From contig CAZQSB010000001.1 of the NCBI GenBank assembly GCA_964596015.1, positions 48,191-112,190 on the forward strand: a stretch of 64,000 bases of DNA. The letters are read 5' to 3'. Position 1 is the first letter of the stretch. Every line of letters starts with the position of its first letter. The DNA is from an uncultured bacterium (GTDB lineage Bacteria; Joyebacterota; Joyebacteria; Joyebacterales; Joyebacteraceae). Positions 1,827 through 61,900 of this stretch are shown here, one piece after another. The position numbers and the translations under genes were made by a program. Under the pieces are notes generated by a model, which was not told where the DNA came from, searched no databases, and saw only the letters and a list, made by a program, of their open reading frames with translations.

Positions 1827-4445
1827 CTAGCGGAGCACGACGACCTTCCCGTGACGTGTCTCCCGCGGCGTCGAGACGCGGACGAAGTAGAGCCCGCTTC
1901 CGAGACGATGTCCGGTCTCGTCGCGGCCGTCCCAGGCCAGCTCTGTCCTGCCCGGGGACACCGACCCCGCAAGGAGCGTGCGGACCAGCCGGCCGTCCAC
2001 GCTGTAGACCTCGACTCTCGCTTCCGTCGCGACGGGCGAGTCAAAGGCGATCATCGTCCGCGCGGCGAACGGGTTCGGCAGCGCCGGATGGAGAGCGAGC
2101 TTCGTCGGTCCACCCTCGATGCCGGTGTTCTCGACAGTGAACGAACCCGTGTCCATCAGCGGACCGCGCTCGGTTCCGTCATCTGCATATGCCGTCCAGT
2201 AGTAGGTCCCGTTCGAGAGCGACGAGCCCACCGTCCAGGAGGTCGTCCCGCTGCCCTCGGCGACGCCGGTCGTCGAACAGACGAGGCCTGTCCTCTCGGC
2301 GTCGCTGTATACGAGGAAGCCGTACGTCAGCACGTCGCCGGCGTCGGGATCGGTCGCGTTCACGACCTCGAGCGTGGGCGTCGACGTCGAGACCGTGCCG
2401 CCCGCTGGCGGGTCGGAGAGCGACGGCGTCTCGGGAGGCGCGTTCGACGGGTCCGGTCCGTAGATCATGACGTCGTCGACGAACCACCCGTTGTCGGTGA
2501 CGTACGCGTCCGAGTTGAACCGGAATCGGACCTTGAACTGATCGGTGCCAACGTAGGGCGAAAGGTCCAGCTCGACCTGTTCCCAACCCCCGTTGTCACC
2601 GTGGTACCTCGGACCGACCTGCAACCAGGTCGAGCCGTTGTCGGTGGACGCCTCGACGTAGCAATAGTCGTAGTCGAGCTCGGTCTGCACCCGGTGCCAG
2701 AAGGTCATCTCGGCGGCGGAGGCGTTCGAGAAGTCGAGCGGTCCGGCGAGCTCGATCCATGTGTTCCGGTAGTTGCCGTAGGAGCCGGACGGGCTGTCGG
2801 TGTACGAGTTCGTGGAGGAGTGGTACACCGACGACGAGAGCCCCCAGTACCCGTCGTTTTCGACCCAGTTGCCTGTCCCGCTCTCCATGTCGTCTGAGAA
2901 GACGAGGGTCGGCGTGCCGACCATCCAGGAGAGGTCCTCCTCGGCGTAGAAGCCGTCGCCGGATATCTGGAGCGTCAGCGTGAGGCCGTGAGCGTCCGGA
3001 CAGGAAGCGTCGAGCGTGAAGGAGAAGGGGTCGGCCGAGTTGTCGGCGCTCGAGAGGGCTGGAATCGACCCGAGGGTCGTTGTGGCGTCGTGAAGCGTCA
3101 CGTACGCGTCGTCGGTGACGAGCGTCATCTCGACGTCGGTCATGCCGAGTCCGACGCCCTGGTTCTCGATGGTCGCGACGAGGTCGAGCGTCTCCCCGGC
3201 GTCCGGCTCGCCGTCGCCGTCGCCGCCCGAGAGAACGTAGTCGTCGAGCGCGAGATAGCCGCCGGCCACTCTCGTCACGTAGATCTGCGGCCAGAGGTTC
3301 TCCGCGTTCAGGCCCGCGATCTCACTCTCCTGGGGCCAGAAGTCGGTGCCGGCCACCTCGATGCAGAGCGAGAGCACGTCGGCGACACCGTAGGCCCAGT
3401 CGCAGGTCGTTCCGCTGCAATCGTAGAGGATCTCTCCCGCCTGTCCGACCTGGTAGCCGTTGTACTTGGCCATCTCGTTCGCCATCGTGCGGAAGAGCGC
3501 GTCGTCGGCCGTGTGCTGGGTGTAGTCGTAGCCCCACGGCAGGAGCACCATGCCGGCCACCGAGTGGAAGGTGACGTTCGTCACGAACTCGTGGTCGAGA
3601 ACGAAGTCCCTGTAGGCCTGGATCTCGGGCTCGGAGAACGCCGAGGTCCCGCAGTAGGTATCGTTGCAGGGATTGAAGGAGATGCCGGACGTACCCCACA
3701 TGTAGTCGTAGTTCCTGTTCGGGTCGACGCCGTAGCAGGAGGACCCATCATTGTCGCGGCGGTTCTTCCGCCACATTCCGCCGCCCTGGGGATAGGTCGT
3801 CTCGTTGTAGACGTAGCCGTCGGGGTTCACGATGGGCAGGAACCAGATCTCGCGGTTGTCGACGAGGAACGTGGCCTCCGGGTCGGAGCCGTAGTTCTGG
3901 CAGAGCCAGTTCATGTAGTGAATCTGGACCTCGAGGGACATGGGCTCGCGCGCGTGGTGCATCCCGTCGAAGAGAACCTCGGGCTCCGTCTCGTCGACGT
4001 CCGGGTTGTCGGAGATCTTGATGGCCCAGAGCGCGCGTCCCTCCCACGAGGAGCCGATGGACTCCCGGGCCGTCGTGATCAGCGGGTAGTTCGCGTGAAG
4101 ATCATCGAGAAAGTCGATCATCTCCGAGTAGGTATGGAACTCGCCGAAGTTCGGTCCTCTCATCCGGGAGGAGTAGTAGCGCTCCATGTCCTCGATCTCG
4201 ACCGTGAGCGCGTAGCCGAGTGAGCGGAGCTCCTCGAGCTGTTGCGCGTCGGTCACGATCTGGACCATCACTCCGGGCTTCGACCGCATGACGTCGAGAC
4301 CAGGGATGCTCACGAACTCCCTCCACTCGGCGCGCGAATCGAACTCCACGAGGGCCTGGATCTTCGCAACGTCGGCCGCGGTCCCGGCGGTCGAGACCAG
4401 CATGACCAGCGCCAGCGCAAGAACGATGTAGCGGGTCGTCCTCAT
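1827..4445 (-). CDS. Secreted M14 zinc carboxypeptidase with FlgD-Ig/T9SS-like C-terminal domain
   Basis: Signal peptide MRTTRYIVLALALVMLVSTAGTA. M14 zinc motifs HHAREPMS and FHSVAGMVLLPWGY. MAM/M6-like middle region. C-terminus PNPFAARTMIAFD...VEVYSVDGRLVRTL...GLYFVRV. RBS GGAAGGAG lies 7 nt upstream. Confidence 0.9.
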   Translation of the reverse strand: MRTTRYIVLALALVMLVSTAGTAADVAKIQALVEFDSRAEWREFVSIPGLDVMRSKPGVMVQIVTDAQQLEELRSLGYALTVEIEDMERYYSSRMRGPNFGEFHTYSEMIDFLDDLHANYPLITTARESIGSSWEGRALWAIKISDNPDVDETEPEVLFDGMHHAREPMSLEVQIHYMNWLCQNYGSDPEATFLVDNREIWFLPIVNPDGYVYNETTYPQGGGMWRKNRRDNDGSSCYGVDPNRNYDYMWGTSGISFNPCNDTYCGTSAFSEPEIQAYRDFVLDHEFVTNVTFHSVAGMVLLPWGYDYTQHTADDALFRTMANEMAKYNGYQVGQAGEILYDCSGTTCDWAYGVADVLSLCIEVAGTDFWPQESEIAGLNAENLWPQIYVTRVAGGYLALDDYVLSGGDGDGEPDAGETLDLVATIENQGVGLGMTDVEMTLVTDDAYVTLHDATTTLGSIPALSSADNSADPFSFTLDASCPDAHGLTLTLQISGDGFYAEEDLSWMVGTPTLVFSDDMESGTGNWVENDGYWGLSSSVYHSSTNSYTDSPSGSYGNYRNTWIELAGPLDFSNASAAEMTFWHRVQTELDYDYCYVEASTDNGSTWLQVGPRYHGDNGGWEQVELDLSPYVGTDQFKVRFRFNSDAYVTDNGWFVDDVMIYGPDPSNAPPETPSLSDPPAGGTVSTSTPTLEVVNATDPDAGDVLTYGFLVYSDAERTGLVCSTTGVAEGSGTTSWTVGSSLSNGTYYWTAYADDGTERGPLMDTGSFTVENTGIEGGPTKLALHPALPNPFAARTMIAFDSPVATEARVEVYSVDGRLVRTLLAGSVSPGRTELAWDGRDETGHRLGSGLYFVRVSTPRETRHGKVVVLR

Positions 4446-54890: not shown

Positions 54891-56999
54891 TCAGCGGGCG
54901 CCGCGCATCAGCTGCCGCACAAGCTCCATGTTCGCCTCGAGCTTCTGATCGCCCGGTCTCAGGCGAAGCGCGGCCTCGAGCTCGGCCAGCGCCTCGCTGT
55001 ACTGCCCCGTCCGCGCAAGGACGATCGCCAGGTTGTTCCTCGCGTCCACGAACCCGGGCGCGATCGACACTGCCCGCGAGTACGACGCGATCGCCGGGGC
55101 CGGTCGGTCCATCTGTTCATAGACGGTCCCGAGCGCGTTCCACGCCTCCGCGAACGACGGCCTGAGGGTGACGGCCGCCCGGAGCTCGCGTTCCGCGTCC
55201 TCGAGACGGCCCGACCGCAGATAGAGCGAGCCCAGGTTGACGCGCGCTTCCGGAAGCCCGGAATCCCTTCTGACCGCCTCCTCGAAGGCGCCTATGGCCT
55301 GCTCGATCTTCCCGCCGCGCCACAGTAGGGCGCCGAGGTTGTTGGGCGCGCTTCCGAGCGTCGTGTCGGTCGCCGCCGCGCGGCGGTACATCGCCGCCGC
55401 CTCTTCGTCCCGTCGCAGACCCTCGAGCGACAACCCCATGTTGTTCATCGCCTTCGCATAGCCGGGCGAGAGCTCGAGCGCGCGCGCGTACGAGGCGACC
55501 GCGAGGTCGTATCGCCCCTTCTGAGCGTGCGCGAGACCGATGGTGTTGTGTGTCTGCGCGCGGTCGCCGACGTGCGTGCCGTAGAAGTCGATGTTCACGA
55601 AGGCGAAGAGGCCGACGAGGAGCACCAGCCAGGGGACGGCCCGCCGCAGCGCTCCGCCTCTGACGAGATCGAAGAGCCACGCCGCGGCCGCGACGGCGAG
55701 CACGATGATGCCGGGGACCACGGGCAGGCGATACCGGGCGTTGATGAAGAAGAGAAGCACGCTTCCCATGTAGGTCACGATGAAGGTGATGAGAAGCAGC
55801 CCCTCACGCCTCCGCGCGAAGGCGAACATCCCCAGGATGCCGAACGGAGCCACGAGACCGAACGACAGCCAGGACAGCGAGCGGAAGAGCGGAGAGTGAT
55901 CGCCGAAGTAGTAGATGTCCTTGTTGTTCGCGAGCTCGAACGAGTCCCAGAAGAGCACGAACTTCCTGACGTAGAGACGCGCGGCCTCTGCGGGCCTCTC
56001 TGTCAGGAACCGTCTTCCCCTGGCGTACCACCAACTCGACGCCTCGCTGGGAGCGAGTTCTCGGCCCGCGTCGCGCTCAGCGAGACGCACGGCGTCCTCG
56101 TACTCCCAGGCCTCCCCCAGCTCGGGGAGGACGGCGGCAACGCCGTCCGACCCCGGATTGTTCCCGATGTAGAAGTTGACGCCACCCTGCGACGCGATCA
56201 GAACGAAGTCATCTCCGACAAGGTGGTTCCTGAGCGTCACCGGCGCGACCACGAGCGCGACCGCGACGGCAAGCACCGCGAACCGGAGCGCGGCCGAGCG
56301 AAGGGGGCTCGCGCACACCAGCGGCGTCGTCCCGGCGCCGTCGCACGCGGGCGGAGGCTCACCGTCCAGTCTCCTCCTCGCCTCGCTCCACCAGGCCCAA
56401 AGGAAGATGAAGGGGATGAACACCAGCACGTTGGGCCGCGCTGTCGCCGAGAGACCGAGAACGACGCCGGCCAGTCCCCAGCGCGCCCACGTCGGTCGCT
56501 CGTCTGCGCGCAGCAGGAGAAGGAGAGCGAGGGAGTCGAGCATCACGATGAGCGACACTATGAGCAGCTCGTTGTCGAAGTAGAGGAAGAACGGATAGAG
56601 GGCGGCGACGGCGCCCGCGGCCACAGGCCACGCCCCGCGGACGAGACGCCGCGTCAGGAAGTAGACGATGACCGGCGTGAACGCCCCCCACGTGATCTGG
56701 ACGAGGCGCGCCGCGAGAAGGCTCCCGTCGAAGACACGGAGGACGAGGCCGAGAAGATACGGATAGAGCGGCGCGCGGAAGAACACGGCCGCGCCGAGCC
56801 AGTCGCCCGCCGCCAGCGCCTGAGCCCACTCGACATGGTAGAGCTCGTCGAGCATGGGCGTGTCGGCGAGAGGGCTCGCCTGAAGGTGAAGCACGTAGAC
56901 GAGACGGAGGGTCCATGCCACTCCGTAGAGAATGAGGGCAGTGACCGCCGGGCCGGGCATCCTCCCCGCGTCGTGAGCGCTCGGTTCCGTGGTCGTCAT
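54891..56999 (-). CDS. Membrane glycosyltransferase family 39 (ArnT/PMT-like) fused to C-terminal TPR repeats
   Basis: About 450 aa of multi-TM region with LDELYHVEWAQAL and FFRAPLYPYLL. C-terminal TPR repeats (AHAQKGRYDLAVASYARALELSPGYAKAMNNMG...). Confidence 0.85.
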   Translation of the reverse strand: MTTTEPSAHDAGRMPGPAVTALILYGVAWTLRLVYVLHLQASPLADTPMLDELYHVEWAQALAAGDWLGAAVFFRAPLYPYLLGLVLRVFDGSLLAARLVQITWGAFTPVIVYFLTRRLVRGAWPVAAGAVAALYPFFLYFDNELLIVSLIVMLDSLALLLLLRADERPTWARWGLAGVVLGLSATARPNVLVFIPFIFLWAWWSEARRRLDGEPPPACDGAGTTPLVCASPLRSAALRFAVLAVAVALVVAPVTLRNHLVGDDFVLIASQGGVNFYIGNNPGSDGVAAVLPELGEAWEYEDAVRLAERDAGRELAPSEASSWWYARGRRFLTERPAEAARLYVRKFVLFWDSFELANNKDIYYFGDHSPLFRSLSWLSFGLVAPFGILGMFAFARRREGLLLITFIVTYMGSVLLFFINARYRLPVVPGIIVLAVAAAAWLFDLVRGGALRRAVPWLVLLVGLFAFVNIDFYGTHVGDRAQTHNTIGLAHAQKGRYDLAVASYARALELSPGYAKAMNNMGLSLEGLRRDEEAAAMYRRAAATDTTLGSAPNNLGALLWRGGKIEQAIGAFEEAVRRDSGLPEARVNLGSLYLRSGRLEDAERELRAAVTLRPSFAEAWNALGTVYEQMDRPAPAIASYSRAVSIAPGFVDARNNLAIVLARTGQYSEALAELEAALRLRPGDQKLEANMELVRQLMRGAR

Positions 57000-57168: not shown

Positions 57169-57197
57169 TTGACACTCAACCCGATATGCCGTACACT
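57169..57197 (+). promoter_or_regulatory. Near-consensus sigma70 promoter in an AT-rich island upstream of the paralog pair
   Basis: TTGACA (57169-57174), 17-nt spacer, TACACT (57192-57197). AT-rich sequence lies upstream. About 200 nt before the first ATG. Confidence 0.55.
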
Positions 57198-57398: not shown

Positions 57399-58061
57399 AT
57401 GAAGAAGCTTGCGCTGGCGATTACGCTGCTGGCGATCATGCTCTTCGTCGTGGCGCCCGCGGGGGCGACCACGTACAGTGTCGGGATGACAGGTCTCGGC
57501 AGCTTCATGAAGAGCCCGGTCGTCTACAACTTCAACTTCATGTTCGGACTCACGGGGACGTGGTCGTTCACCATCGACGACTCGCTCTGGCCTGACCCGT
57601 CCGATCCGGACGCGCGGTTCGACTACATCTGGAACACGTTCTTCGCGGGCAACTACGACGCGACTCCGGGCGCCCAGGCGTGGAGAGGGTACTTCGACGC
57701 TCAGACGCTTCCGTCGACTCCGCAGTTCACGATGAACGTCACCTCGCCGATCTCGGGCACCTTCGGCGGCGACATAACTTTCGTCGTGCAGGTGCGCGAC
57801 ATCTACTCGGATGGTATCCTCGACGAAACCGAGAAGTTCAATGACCACAACATCAACGCCACGATCATCCTGAACCCGACGCTCGGCACGGGCGATCTCG
57901 TGAACATGTGCGGGCATGGTTCAATGTCCGGCGGAGACTTCAATTTCGTCTATCCTCCGACCGACGATTCGCTTACGATGTTCGGGCAGATTCAGATCAA
58001 CCCCTGCCCGAGCCCGGTCGAGGATTCGAGCTGGGGCACGATCAAGGCGCTGTATCAGTAA
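57399..58061 (+). CDS. Secreted protein, unknown family, paralog 1 (C-terminal SWGTIKALYQ tail)
   Basis: RBS AAAGGAGAGGG. Signal MKKLALAITLLAIMLFVVAPAGA. One DxxSDGILDE Ca-loop-like motif. Ends NPCPSPVEDSSWGTIKALYQ. Confidence 0.85.
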   Translation: MKKLALAITLLAIMLFVVAPAGATTYSVGMTGLGSFMKSPVVYNFNFMFGLTGTWSFTIDDSLWPDPSDPDARFDYIWNTFFAGNYDATPGAQAWRGYFDAQTLPSTPQFTMNVTSPISGTFGGDITFVVQVRDIYSDGILDETEKFNDHNINATIILNPTLGTGDLVNMCGHGSMSGGDFNFVYPPTDDSLTMFGQIQINPCPSPVEDSSWGTIKALYQ

Positions 58062-58145
58062 CAACGAAGCCGAGACACTCGGCTGAACAGGATTTGAGTG
58101 GAGAGGGAAGGCGTCCCTGCGGGGACCGGGCAAAAGGAGAGGAAG

Positions 58146-58799
58146 ATGCGTGCACTGACGATCGCTGTGATGGTGGCGTTGCTCGCTTTCGTTTCGGTCG
58201 CGAGCGGCTACACGCTGTACTACGGTTCCGGCAACGGCGACTTCATGGACGTCCCGCCGGTGTTCACCGGTGGCATGGACCCGGGCGGCGACATTACGGC
58301 CGGCTCGTGGACGATCACGATCACCGACGACGGCTGGCCGACCGACCCGATCGACCGGGCCGCGTACATCTGGGACACGTTCTACGCTCCGAACTACACA
58401 CCCGGCACCCCCGGGTTCTGGAAGGGCTACTTCGACACCGACCACGGTCTGTCCGCGATGAACGCGCTCCAGATCGTCGATGAGACGGGCGGCGGCGTCA
58501 TCGGTACGATGGGCGGCGTCTGCTCGGTCGAGATCCAGGTCGAGGACTCGAACTCGAACGGCATCCTCGATGAGGGCGAGTTCTGCAGCGGCAGCCTCAC
58601 GGGCCTCGTCATCATCATCCGCGACGGCAGCGGCATCTACGACGGCATGTGCGGCACAGGCAACTACTTCGGCAGCTACGTCAAGGACTGCCCCGGTACG
58701 TACGAGACCTGGCAGTTCGGCATGTACCTGTTCCTCAGCGACTGCTCGTCGCCTGTGGAAGAGGCCAGCTGGGGCAGCATCAAGGCCCTGTACCAGTAG
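58146..58799 (+). CDS. Secreted protein, unknown family, paralog 2 (C-terminal SWGSIKALYQ tail)
   Basis: RBS AAAAGGAGAGG before the ATG at 58146 (the track start is 58098). Signal MRALTIAVMVALLAFVSVASG. Aligns with paralog 1 throughout. Ends SDCSSPVEEASWGSIKALYQ. Confidence 0.85.
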   Translation: MRALTIAVMVALLAFVSVASGYTLYYGSGNGDFMDVPPVFTGGMDPGGDITAGSWTITITDDGWPTDPIDRAAYIWDTFYAPNYTPGTPGFWKGYFDTDHGLSAMNALQIVDETGGGVIGTMGGVCSVEIQVEDSNSNGILDEGEFCSGSLTGLVIIIRDGSGIYDGMCGTGNYFGSYVKDCPGTYETWQFGMYLFLSDCSSPVEEASWGSIKALYQ

Positions 58800-58929: not shown

Positions 58930-61900
58930 ATGCCCCGGAATGTAGGGTGTGGTGAGAGGGGCCGGGCTGGTATGTGGCTCGGCCCTCTCTCACCCCTGGC
59001 AATCGCGCTCGTCCTCCTCCTCGCGCTTGCGGGGATGACCGCGGGAGCCGCCACGGTACCGGTTGAGGGAGGCGGCCCTGCGAGCACCGAGAAGAGCGCG
59101 GCCGCTCCGGTTACGATAACTCTCGACCTTGTGGATATGACGACGGACGCGACGCCCACGCGGGGCCCGCGTCCGTCAGGCGTTTTCTGGGACAAGGAAG
59201 ACCCCGAACTCATCCGCCTCGTCGCGGTCCCGCACTGCCGCGAGGCTCACGTTCTCTCTGTGAACTCCCTCGCCACGGACGGTTCGCGCCGCGCGCTGGA
59301 CGCCGGGGCGGCGCGTGTGACCGAGCTGGCGCGCATCAGAGAGCAGACCGTCGCCGTGCTCGCGCTGGACCGGGCGGCCCTCGCGGGCGCCGCTCGCGTC
59401 GAGGTCGTCATTGAACCGGTCGATCCTGTCGGGCCTGTCGCGCGGACGACCGGTCCCTTCACAGCGACCTGCCGCCGCGCTCTGAGCGGATACGACCCCC
59501 GGACACCCGCGACCTGGTCCCCGCCGGCTCGACCAGAGACGAGAACGGGAACGGTCACCTACTGCTACTCGATGAGCGACTGCATCGCCGCGGGCATCGA
59601 CTTCCTCTTCATCGCCGCCGCCGACTTCGCCTACGCCCCGGCCATCTACGCGCTCGCCAACCACCGCGCGGCGTATCTCGGCCTCAATGTGGGCATCGTC
59701 TCGACGGACGCCATCGACGACCTGTCTCCCGGGACGCTCAGAGCGTTCATCCAATCGGTCTACGACTCGGAGAGCGCCGAGCACTTCGGTGACGGACGGC
59801 TCGGGTTCGTCCTTCTCATCGGTGACGCCTACGCGGACGACAACCAGACCGAGATGATCCCCGCATACTACGGATACGGAGGGAACGAGGAGGCGTCGGA
59901 CCACTACTACGCCTGCGTGAGCGGCGACGACGACTTTGAAGACATCATGCTCGGGCGTCTCCCGGCCGGGAACCTGACGGAGGTTGTCAGGGTCGTCGGC
60001 AAGACCGGGGGCTACATGCCGCTGTCCAAGGGCATGGAGTGGCGCGACAGCATGTTGCTGGTCGGCGGTCTCTTCTATACGACCAAGCAGGAGTACGTCG
60101 ATCTCTTCGACGAGTACCAGGAGATCGTTCCCGGCCCGATGACCGTGGACCGCATCTACCGACACGACTATATGAACGACTCCCAGTGCGCCGCGGACCT
60201 CGTCAGCGAGATCAACGACGGGCATCTCTTCGCCACCTTCGTCGGAGACGGCTGGATCCACGAGTGGCACAGGACGATGAAGTCGACGCACATCGAGCTT
60301 CTGGACAACATGGATCGGCTCCCGATCGTCCTGTCGATGGCGTGCATGACCGGGTGGTTCGACAACACGACCCAGGTAGGCCCAACCGGCTCTTACGACT
60401 GCTTCGCGGAGCAACTCGTGAATGCCGAGAACTCCGGAGCCATCGCCTGTTTCGCCGCGCCGCGCCCGACCGACGGCGGGGTCTACAGGACGCTGACCAA
60501 GGAGGTTTTCCGCTCCGCGTTCGAGGAGCACTGCGTCTATCTGGGCGAACTCTTCGCGACGGCGAAGCTCATGCATCTCCAGAGCGGCGGGCAGACGAAG
60601 TACGTGCGCCACTTCAACCTCTTCGGCGACCCTGCTCTCATTTTCGCCTGGGACGAAACGCCGTCCTCCGGCGCCGACCTCGTCGTCAGACCGCACGAGA
60701 TCTGGACCACGCCAGAGCATCTGAGCCACCACGATGAGCTCACGGTCGGAGTCACTCTCACGAACCAGAGCGTCGTGGACGCCCAGGCGGTGACGCTCCG
60801 CGCGACGTTCGACGGTCCCGCCGGCCAGTACGTGGACCAGGTCACTCTTCCCCTCCTCGGCGCATGGTCGGAGACGGAATACGTCTTCGTCCTGCCTCAG
60901 TCGGCGGCCGGAAGCGCCACACTGACGATCACGGCCGATCCGTCGAACGTCATCGCCGAGATCGACGAGACGAACAACGAGGCGCAGATCGAGCTCTTCA
61001 TCTACCCGTCCGTGCCCGGATTCCCGATCGACATGGCGACCGAGCCCTGCGCGCCGGCCGTCTCGGTAACGCAGGGCGGACAGGCCTCGATCATCGTCCA
61101 GGACGAGGAAGCCAGAGTATGGTCGATAGCCGCCGATGGTTCGGTCGCCTGGCAGTCCGACCCGGCGACCGCGCCGCTCGAGTACGGCCCGGAGATGGCC
61201 GTTGCAACGGGCGATCTCGATGGCGACGGCGAGCCCGAGACGGCCGTGCTCCGACGCATGGGGGCGGCGGCCTACGAGACCGATGGCTCACCGATGTGGA
61301 CGGTGAACACCTCTGATCCGCTCGGTCGGCCTGTGATCGCCGACGCCGACGGCGATGGCGACGGCGACGTCATACTCGCGACATGGAACCTCTTCGGCGG
61401 CGAGTCCGTCATCACGGCGATCGACGAGGACGGGAGCACGATCTGGTCGTGGACCGTCCCGGACGGCGGCCGGGTCTCGACAGCCCCCGTCGCGGGCGAC
61501 TTCGACCTGGACGGCCGTCTGGACGTGGCCTGCGGCACCGATCAGGGCAACGTCTGGGCGGTCAGCTGCGCCTCGGGCCAACCGGTCGAGCTCTGGCCGG
61601 CCGCGTCGCCGGGCAGCAGCGTCAACACGTTGGCCCTGACCGACGAGGAGGGCGACGGGCGCCTGGAGATCCTCGTCGGCTGCGACCACATCGTGTCGTT
61701 GTCCGCTCTCGACGGTTCCGAGCGGTGGTCCCGCGATCTCGACGGACCCGTGACCGCCACGGCCATCGGCGACCTCGACGAGGACGGCGACAAAGAGGTC
61801 GTCGTCGGCACGGTCTCAGGCACGGTCTACCGCATCGATGACGGGGTCCCACTCTGGGGCGTGAGCCTGGGGGCGCCCACAAGCGAGTCGTTCGTCATCG

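Follow-up and report, generated by a model that had tools for sequence, protein, structure and literature searches.

A conserved C-terminal peptide on unrelated exported proteins of Candidatus Eisenbacteria and allied phyla looks like an undescribed protein-sorting tag

Why do two neighbouring genes whose products have diverged over most of their length share an almost identical ending? The question is raised by a tandem pair, denoted WIN1 and WIN2, in a 64-kb stretch of DNA from an uncultured bacterium (contig CAZQSB010000001.1; the whole stretch is called the window, and positions are counted from its first letter). Both proteins finish on the pattern SPVExxSWGxIKALYQ-stop, here called the tail. 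We read the last ~15 residues as a portable tag that lies at the extreme C-terminus, outside the fold, on unrelated Sec-exported proteins and that would serve in sorting or anchoring; we put the probability of this reading at about 0.7. The tail looks like an undescribed C-terminal protein-sorting tag, for which no model or paper was found; full-text searches, outside which subscription-only papers lay, returned nothing relevant on the motif or on sorting and secretion in Eisenbacteria or Latescibacteria.

The WIN gene pair and its shared ending

WIN1 occupies positions 57399..58061 (+) and encodes a secreted-type protein of 220 amino acids; its paralog WIN2, likewise of secreted type, is found at 58146..58799 (+) and comprises 217 residues, the stop codon being included in both pairs of coordinates. 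An earlier note on this DNA had given lengths of 220 and 218. The first stands, whereas the second becomes 217 if translation starts at the ATG downstream of an AAGGAG ribosome-binding site; read mechanically, the open reading frame (ORF) of WIN2 reaches back to a GTG at 58098 and would yield 233 residues. The ribosome-binding sites upstream of the two genes read GGAGAG (WIN1) and AAGGAGAGG (WIN2). The GC content at third codon positions (0.82 for WIN1 and 0.91 for WIN2, in a window of 67% GC) shows a coding-type bias. As described in the earlier note, whose quoted alignment blocks are correct, the paralogs can be aligned along their length, with 36% identity over the full length and an E value of 3e-29 (BLASTP).

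Both N-termini begin with one or more basic residues, continue in a hydrophobic run and reach a cleavage motif of small-x-small type. The signal peptide of WIN1 (amino acids 1-23, 57399..57467, +), read from the sequence as MKKLALAITLLAIMLFVVAPAGA followed by T, consists of MKK, the hydrophobic run and AGA before the cleavage site; that of WIN2 (amino acids 1-21, 58146..58208, +), MRALTIAVMVALLAFVSVASG followed by Y, consists of MR, the hydrophobic run and ASG. In the AlphaFold2 models these segments form helices outside the core (amino acids 2-17 of WIN1 and, at low confidence, 2-19 of WIN2), consistent with the cleavable-looking signal peptides noted earlier.

The paralogs end in NPCPSPVEDSSWGTIKALYQ-stop and SDCSSPVEEASWGSIKALYQ-stop. 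The tag proper, PVEDSSWGTIKALYQ, spans amino acids 206-220 of WIN1 (58014..58058, +; stop at 58059-58061), and its counterpart PVEEASWGSIKALYQ spans amino acids 203-217 of WIN2 (58752..58796, +; stop at 58797-58799). Both endings were confirmed on the sequence, as was the reported identity of 28 out of 33 nucleotides at the gene ends. Two of the five mismatches are synonymous third-position changes in conserved tail codons (GCG/GCC and TAT/TAC); the other three fall on two bases of a variable Thr/Ser codon and on the stop codon. After the motif there is a single residue and then the stop, so that the hydrophobic anchor or basic stretch whose lack had been pointed out before is indeed absent. 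A degenerate DNA pattern for [ST]WGxIKALY matched exactly two sites in the window, where none was expected from 100 shuffles, and a relaxed protein expression run over all six frames returned the same two sites only.

The tail on unrelated exported proteins

A DNA pattern for [ST]WGxIKALY, degenerate at the codon level and blind to position in the gene, was run over the genomes of GTDB species, one genome for each. At least 120 loci carry it. The counts that follow, from 132 matches, 110 loci and 99 tagged proteins, refer to the matches listed. Exactly one residue precedes the stop in 83 of the 132 matches, and zero to three residues do so in 114. By our information-content estimate, some 100 matches would arise by chance across the entire collection, and these would show no positional bias. 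Labelled records are mostly Candidatus Eisenbacteria; others are Latescibacterota, Krumholzibacteriota, Fermentibacteria, Fibrobacteraceae, Coatesbacteria and Poribacteria, together with Gemmatimonadota-labelled metagenome-assembled genomes (MAGs) and one Verrucomicrobiota-labelled MAG. To judge from these records, the tag appears to be borne, mostly by small proteins, in Candidatus Eisenbacteria and allied candidate phyla of the Fibrobacterota-Chlorobiota-Bacteroidota (FCB) group. Because several MAGs supply four to seven of the listed loci each, there are many tagged genes per genome.

A few matches depart from this pattern. Three homologous trypsin-like proteins from Pseudomonadota/Methylophilaceae-labelled records carry the match internally, two matches in Bacilli- and Brucella-labelled records have no readable in-frame motif, and the match in locus L009 has essentially no ORF upstream. 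At L029:6491-6517 and L119:2327-2353 the P-V/T-x-x context precedes the motif and 49-82 more codons follow it; frameshift or pseudogenisation of tagged genes, or errors of assembly, may account for these. Viral collections hold further examples. Two high-GC 'viral' contigs of IMG/VR (L123 and L124) contain C-terminally tagged genes ending in TWGGIKAFYR and TWGSIKAFYR, and two phage structural-looking proteins from the same source (L122:6479-6505 and L125:7563-7589) have [ST]WGAIKALYER in a C-terminal segment predicted to be coiled-coil-like, in which the chain runs on for 15 residues past the motif.

The bodies to which the tail is attached are diverse. Stripped of signal peptide and tail, 101 sequences (the 99 tagged proteins with 100 or more amino acids, plus WIN1 and WIN2) fell into 56 unrelated BLAST clusters. 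Their Pfam domains include NHL, Beta_helix, LTD, CHRD, NPCBM, FG-GAP, cleaved-adhesin, Copper-bind/cupredoxin, CAP and others, and no Pfam family occurs in more than three of 57 tagged representatives. When the last 45 residues are searched, the models for CHRD, NHL and plastocyanin reach their last profile position ~20 residues ahead of the stop, and ten unrelated tails of this length gave no Pfam or NCBIfam match within the tail even at E ≤ 10. Likewise, no model of Pfam (2025) or NCBIfam (June 2026) covers the tail in the WIN pair or in 57 tagged proteins. Signal-peptide-like N-termini were recognised by a simple heuristic in 87 of the 99 tagged proteins; seven of these 87 have a lipobox-like motif. 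The tail is thus a peptide near the terminus of Sec-type exported proteins, both conserved and modular and equivalent in position to surface-sorting modules, and the sorting- or processing-tag reading of the earlier note gains support from its C-terminal place on 56 unrelated clusters in several phyla, from its exchange with other modules and from its position outside the fold.

Conservation extends to residues that the search pattern did not contain. In the 110 loci the upstream flank has P at -5 in 59, V at -4 in 70 and E at -3 in 54, with Cys at -8 in 25 tails; downstream, R stands at +1 in 73 (K, Q or N in the remainder), and a stop follows in 81. The consensus reads (C-x-x)-P-V-E-x-x-[S/T]-W-G-x-I-K-A-L-Y-[R/K/Q]-stop, R being the commonest last residue, and relaxed variants in neighbouring genes replace I by V or M, A by S or T, L by M, F or I, and Y by F. 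Meanwhile the codons for Gly, Ala, Leu and Tyr show free variation at their synonymous positions (GGC/GGT/GGA/GGG; GCG/GCC/GCT/GCA). Since these positions vary across the 110 loci while the amino acids are fixed, a nucleotide-level element is excluded, and selection acts on the tail peptide.

The same data bear on whether the tail could be the last structural element of one family, or a terminator or regulatory RNA at gene ends. The 28 identical nucleotides of the window copies and the fact that the tail is the most conserved segment of the WIN family would fit such an explanation. It leaves out of account, however, the 56 unrelated clusters that carry the tail, the codon variation, the position of the tail outside the predicted core, and WIN bodies that occur without it inside larger proteins. 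In P0149 (1919 amino acids) and P0137 (2903 amino acids) the WIN body forms an N-terminal domain and the tail is absent; the profile match ends at position ~205, and P0149 terminates in a FlgD-type C-terminal domain. We assign this explanation next to no probability: the clusters, the codon variation and the tail-less WIN bodies refute it. A core beta-strand, a family-specific element and a nucleotide-level element were all rejected. The outcomes that would have spoken against a tag, namely a core strand confined to one family or membership in a characterised family, were looked for and neither was seen. As a side observation, the tail-less WIN bodies lie in giant beta-helix-rich proteins; P0140 (333 amino acids) is listed alongside P0149 and P0137.

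The tail also changes places with known sorting modules. Tagged bodies match the NCBIfam choice-of-anchor families W (2.2e-55), J (1.2e-25) and V (8.9e-25), as well as ScyF (PEP-CTERM), MXAN_6652 (MYXO-CTERM), rhombosortase-dependent M36 and PepA (PEP-CTERM), all of which bear recognised C-terminal sorting signals in other lineages. The bodies of WIN1 and WIN2 match none of the choice-of-anchor models of Pfam/NCBIfam; judged by the tail-less P0149 and P0137, the WIN family nonetheless behaves in a choice-of-anchor-like manner. A natural anchor-swap pair is seen in locus L115 (2638-3039, -, and 3188-3898, +), where two cupredoxin paralogs are 48% identical over the domain: one ends in DAPIVVESKTWGAIKALYATPR-stop, and the other runs into a FlgD-type C-terminal domain, characteristic of the type IX secretion system (T9SS), that ends in RKMVLLK-stop. 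The tail occupies the place that is held on homologs by an ~80-residue T9SS-type domain or by a PEP-CTERM/MYXO-CTERM signal.

The tail has several features in common with the T9SS type-A domain (TIGR04183/PF13860). Both are C-terminal on Sec-exported proteins of the FCB group and modular across unrelated cargo, and they occur in the same genomes and loci, where they are interchangeable between paralogs. Proteins that end in a FlgD/T9SS type-A domain adjoin tagged genes more often than any other neighbour, in at least 34 of the 120 loci listed. The tail could accordingly be a minimal or alternative signal of the same T9SS that handles the FlgD-type domains, perhaps read by a PorU-like C25 peptidase, in which case it would be a sub-type of T9SS cargo signal and no pathway of its own; all nameable lineages belong to the FCB group or to neighbouring phyla, and a C25 peptidase with the PorU sortase as its top NCBIfam match lies in synteny with the window pair. 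This match scores 118.8 bits against a cut-off of 420, however, which leaves the PorU identity unconfirmed, and C25 genes are not generally adjacent to tagged genes. The type-A domain is moreover a folded, immunoglobulin-like (Ig-like) domain of ~70-100 residues, whereas the tail comprises ~15 residues, is helix-prone and unstructured in models, and resembles neither end of the ~80-residue Ig-like sandwich in sequence or length. Hidden Markov models yield no match either: TIGR04183 and PF13860 were null on tails even at E ≤ 10, in keeping with the distinction from the FlgD-type domain drawn in the earlier note. The motif is also present in Patescibacteria-labelled records, a group that is not expected to possess a T9SS. 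We consider a T9SS signal unlikely. Tagged proteins are also the smaller ones, with a median of 243 and a maximum of 604 amino acids as opposed to a median of 763 for the neighbours with FlgD-type domains in the same loci; tail and domain may partition cargo by size.

Predicted structure of the tail and comparison with other signals

AlphaFold2 gives both proteins a high-confidence core (pLDDT >90) that stops at approximately residue 200, at a conserved Cys. In WIN1 a linker (amino acids 203-208) and a helix (amino acids 209-219) follow, with pLDDT values of ~58-69; in WIN2 the core ends at amino acid 199, and a linker of pLDDT ~58 leads to a helix at amino acids 209-216 with pLDDT ~72. Because the core stops near residue 200 and is succeeded by a linker and a helix of only 8-11 residues, the models predict that the tail is not a core strand. 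The hydrophobic moment of the tail is 0.27-0.52 and its mean hydrophobicity is low.

A short helix predicted in both paralogs, with W, I, L and Y at positions i, i+3, i+6 and i+7 and K and R alongside, brings to mind a generic peripheral membrane anchor, that is, a short amphipathic helix with interfacial Trp/Tyr and basic Lys/Arg residues and no dedicated protein partner. The tolerance of trailing residues and of an N-terminal position would also be in line with a lipid-binding helix. A length of 8-11 residues, the modest moment and the low hydrophobicity count against this proposal, and the near-invariance of W, G and K together with the conservation of P-V-E and of the terminal R exceeds what lipid binding needs. 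Amphipathic anchors of the PBP5 type would have at least ~16 residues, a high moment and low specificity; the short predicted helix, the modest moment and the very high conservation of the tail lean against its membership in that class. Since W, G, K and Y hardly vary, and since the flanking P-V-E and R are kept in different phyla and folds, recognition by a protein is favoured over generic lipid binding; we regard a membrane anchor of this kind as improbable.

The extreme C-terminal place of the tail, mostly one residue after the Tyr, would also suit an element that is recognised in the periplasm by a protease or quality-control factor (PDZ or tail-specific-protease type) and that acts as a degron or as a site of maturation, and the window encodes peptidases with C-terminal domains, an M14 enzyme (1830-4445) and the C25 peptidase (58930-63483). 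Known tail-specific proteases favour apolar C-termini, however, whereas the tail ends in R, K or Q; a degron common to dozens of unrelated, conserved extracellular-type proteins would be unusual, and the replacement of known surface-sorting modules by the tail points to localisation rather than turnover. This explanation appears very improbable.

With PEP-CTERM, LPXTG, GlyGly-CTERM and MYXO-CTERM the tail shares the character of a short conserved C-terminal motif on many unrelated exported proteins, and the tagged bodies belong to the choice-of-anchor and related families on which signals of the PEP-CTERM/MYXO-CTERM class are found elsewhere. A tripartite sortase or exosortase signal was rejected: there is no transmembrane helix with basic cluster, the stop follows zero to three residues after the motif in most matches, and NCBIfam was null. 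The outer-membrane beta-signal is likewise a conserved C-terminal aromatic/hydrophobic peptide on Sec-exported proteins, but it forms the last strand of a barrel and has an aromatic end, whereas the tail is predicted to be helical and ends in R/K/Q. It was dismissed in view of the R that predominates at +1 and of the soluble folds of the cargo (propellers, beta-helices, cupredoxins). A type I secretion signal, which goes with lack of a signal peptide and low conservation, was set aside as well, given the signal-peptide-like N-termini and the highly conserved motif.

A functional analogy, and no more than that, can be drawn with the peroxisomal targeting signal type 1 (PTS1, -SKL), a eukaryotic signal that is read by the tetratricopeptide repeat (TPR) receptor PEX5 and needs a free carboxylate. 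Both are very short, transmembrane-less terminal peptides on folded cargo, presumably bound by a receptor, and TPR proteins are frequent neighbours of tagged genes, although this co-location is weak. PTS1 differs from the tail in its eukaryotic occurrence, its sequence and its strict dependence on the free carboxylate.

Genomic neighbourhood, the WIN family and a proposed role

In the window the pair is flanked by two genes of potential relevance. Upstream, at 54891..56999 (-), lies a membrane glycosyltransferase of GT-C type with a periplasmic TPR domain (Pfam PMT_2 and many TPR models), a divergently transcribed neighbour denoted PMT_2-TPR. Downstream, at 58930..63483 (+), lies the C25 (gingipain/PorU-like) peptidase, a protein of 1517 amino acids in which Pfam recognises CARDB, an FG-GAP propeller, a beta-helix and, from ~63211, a FlgD/T9SS type-A domain. 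PF13860 and TIGR04183 match this protein as well as the M14 zinc carboxypeptidase at 1830-4445 (-), a predicted T9SS-type cargo that combines an InhA-like MAM domain with a type-A FlgD/T9SS domain at its C-terminus, which establishes the FlgD-type domains of neighbouring proteins as real. A sigma-70-like promoter match, TTGACA-17-TACACT, is found upstream of WIN1 at 57169..57197 (+), a consensus match alone. The order of the WIN pair and the C25 peptidase is repeated in L006, L023 and L088; a PMT_2-TPR ortholog takes the same position in L006, and full-length homologs adjoin other tagged genes in L095 and L089. We also observed that the four-gene order PMT_2-TPR (-), WIN1, WIN2, C25 is conserved in Eisenbacteria-like MAGs (L006, L023, L088).

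Several observations weigh against the tag proposed here. Clustering of 2725 ORFs from the 120 loci listed revealed no recurrent, sorting-enzyme-like untagged neighbour. C25 peptidases are present in only six of these loci, three of them orthologous, and PMT_2-TPR homologs in only three, so that both neighbours are leads and not findings. The search pattern itself prescribed the core positions of the motif, and their invariance across loci is therefore partly by construction. The taxonomic range is approximate because many or most MAG records bear only the label 'uncultured bacterium'. Finally, ~10% of tails carry 4-13 extra residues after the motif, and four secreted Kerfeldbacteria/Patescibacteria-labelled proteins have [ST]WGxIKALYRG near the N-terminus, directly after the signal peptide (two genes in L002, motifs at 1850-1876 and 3190-3216, -; L056, motifs at 1068-1094 and 3648-3674, -). 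Because of these trailing residues and N-terminal motifs, a mechanism that strictly demands a free C-terminus cannot be universal. The motif may be able to work at either protein end, or it may be mimicked by episymbionts. An assignment of the Patescibacteria proteins to the M23 peptidases was considered and is unconfirmed: a PHIHFSVH motif occurs in two of them, and Pfam was null at E ≤ 1e-4 (L056:3012-3851).

The untagged neighbours that do recur are proteins with a FlgD-type C-terminal domain, sigma-54-type regulators, TPR proteins and an AmmeMemoRadiSam radical SAM enzyme. Near tagged genes in the 120 loci listed, nothing resembling a sortase, exosortase or rhombosortase gene was found. 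The AmmeMemoRadiSam enzyme (TIGR04337, 385.7 bits; L014:1449-2864, with homologs in L044, L049, L007 and L086) is situated directly beside beta-helix-tagged and CHRD-tagged genes, a synteny that may be coincidental.

The window genes themselves are tandem paralogs of a narrow Eisenbacteria family that is beta-rich and has an EF-hand-like loop. In a collection of 5.8 billion proteins, WIN1 has 59 homolog clusters at E ≤ 1e-3, and WIN2 has 76. Nearly all homologs are 213-233 amino acids long; few are named, most of those (for WIN1, every one) being Candidatus Eisenbacteria, and no precomputed Pfam domain is recorded on any cluster. An exhaustive profile search of 1.84 billion representatives returned only 64 proteins at E ≤ 1e-3, which is why we call the family narrow. 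The tail is kept in essentially all full-length homologs of these clusters, and the WIN1 alignment shows it as their most conserved segment. Pfam and NCBIfam gave zero matches on WIN1 and WIN2 even at E ≤ 10. The AlphaFold2 models (mean pLDDT 89 and 86) each consist of a beta-rich core and one long helix; a Foldseek search of the WIN1 model against PDB and BFVD yielded nothing at E ≤ 1e-3, the top match being 2q03, an uncharacterised Shewanella protein (template modelling scores 0.34/0.53). The earlier view that neither fold nor tail belongs to a named family therefore agrees with the domain searches and with the lack of a convincing structural relative in PDB or BFVD.

Both paralogs contain a 12-residue loop at amino acids 134-145, which we compared with the EF-hand loop pattern D-x-[DN]-x-[DN]-G-x-[ILV]-x-x-x-E. 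The loop of WIN2, DSNSNGILDEGE (58545..58580, +), is of canonical EF-hand type and fits the full pattern, and that of WIN1, DIYSDGILDETE (57798..57833, +), is EF-hand-like and fits positions 1, 5, 6, 8 and 12. D134 is invariant in the WIN1 and WIN2 alignments (A1 and A4, respectively); E145 is invariant in A1 and reaches at least 90% in A4. Positions 72-148 gave weak PDB profile matches to the EF-hands of recoverin/KChIP (E~0.2), and the Pfam EF-hand model found no match on either protein. The conserved loop suggests a calcium site within the beta-rich WIN fold, for which no close structural relatives were found.

How might such a tag act? The N-terminal signal peptide would carry the protein over the inner membrane. 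Once exposed, the tail with its flexible linker and short, helix-prone peptide could be bound by a conserved envelope receptor or processing enzyme, and this partner would set the final location, either retaining the protein on the cell surface or outer envelope or transferring it there. On a wider and more tentative view, to which we give somewhat less than even odds, Eisenbacteria, Latescibacterota, Krumholzibacteriota, Fermentibacteria, some Fibrobacterota and neighbouring candidate phyla would possess a previously unrecognised sorting or surface-display system that runs parallel to the T9SS, handles mostly small cargo and relies on a transmembrane-less signal of 10-15 residues read by a conserved receptor or transpeptidase. 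If this is true, the Patescibacteria motif after the signal peptide could mean that a receptor-ligand pair is used or mimicked by episymbionts.

LPXTG, PEP-CTERM and the T9SS C-terminal domain each led to a dedicated envelope machine and are used to predict surface proteomes. The tail marks many exported proteins of several major uncultured phyla, all of which are now annotated as 'hypothetical'; a profile of it would re-annotate a class of surface or secreted proteins and would offer a handle for phylogenetic profiling toward the cognate receptor or enzyme. Were the mechanism worked out, the tail, being portable and very short, could serve as a tag in the engineering of display or secretion. 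For the 'choice-of-anchor' families, the tail would mean that they have one anchor beyond those catalogued.

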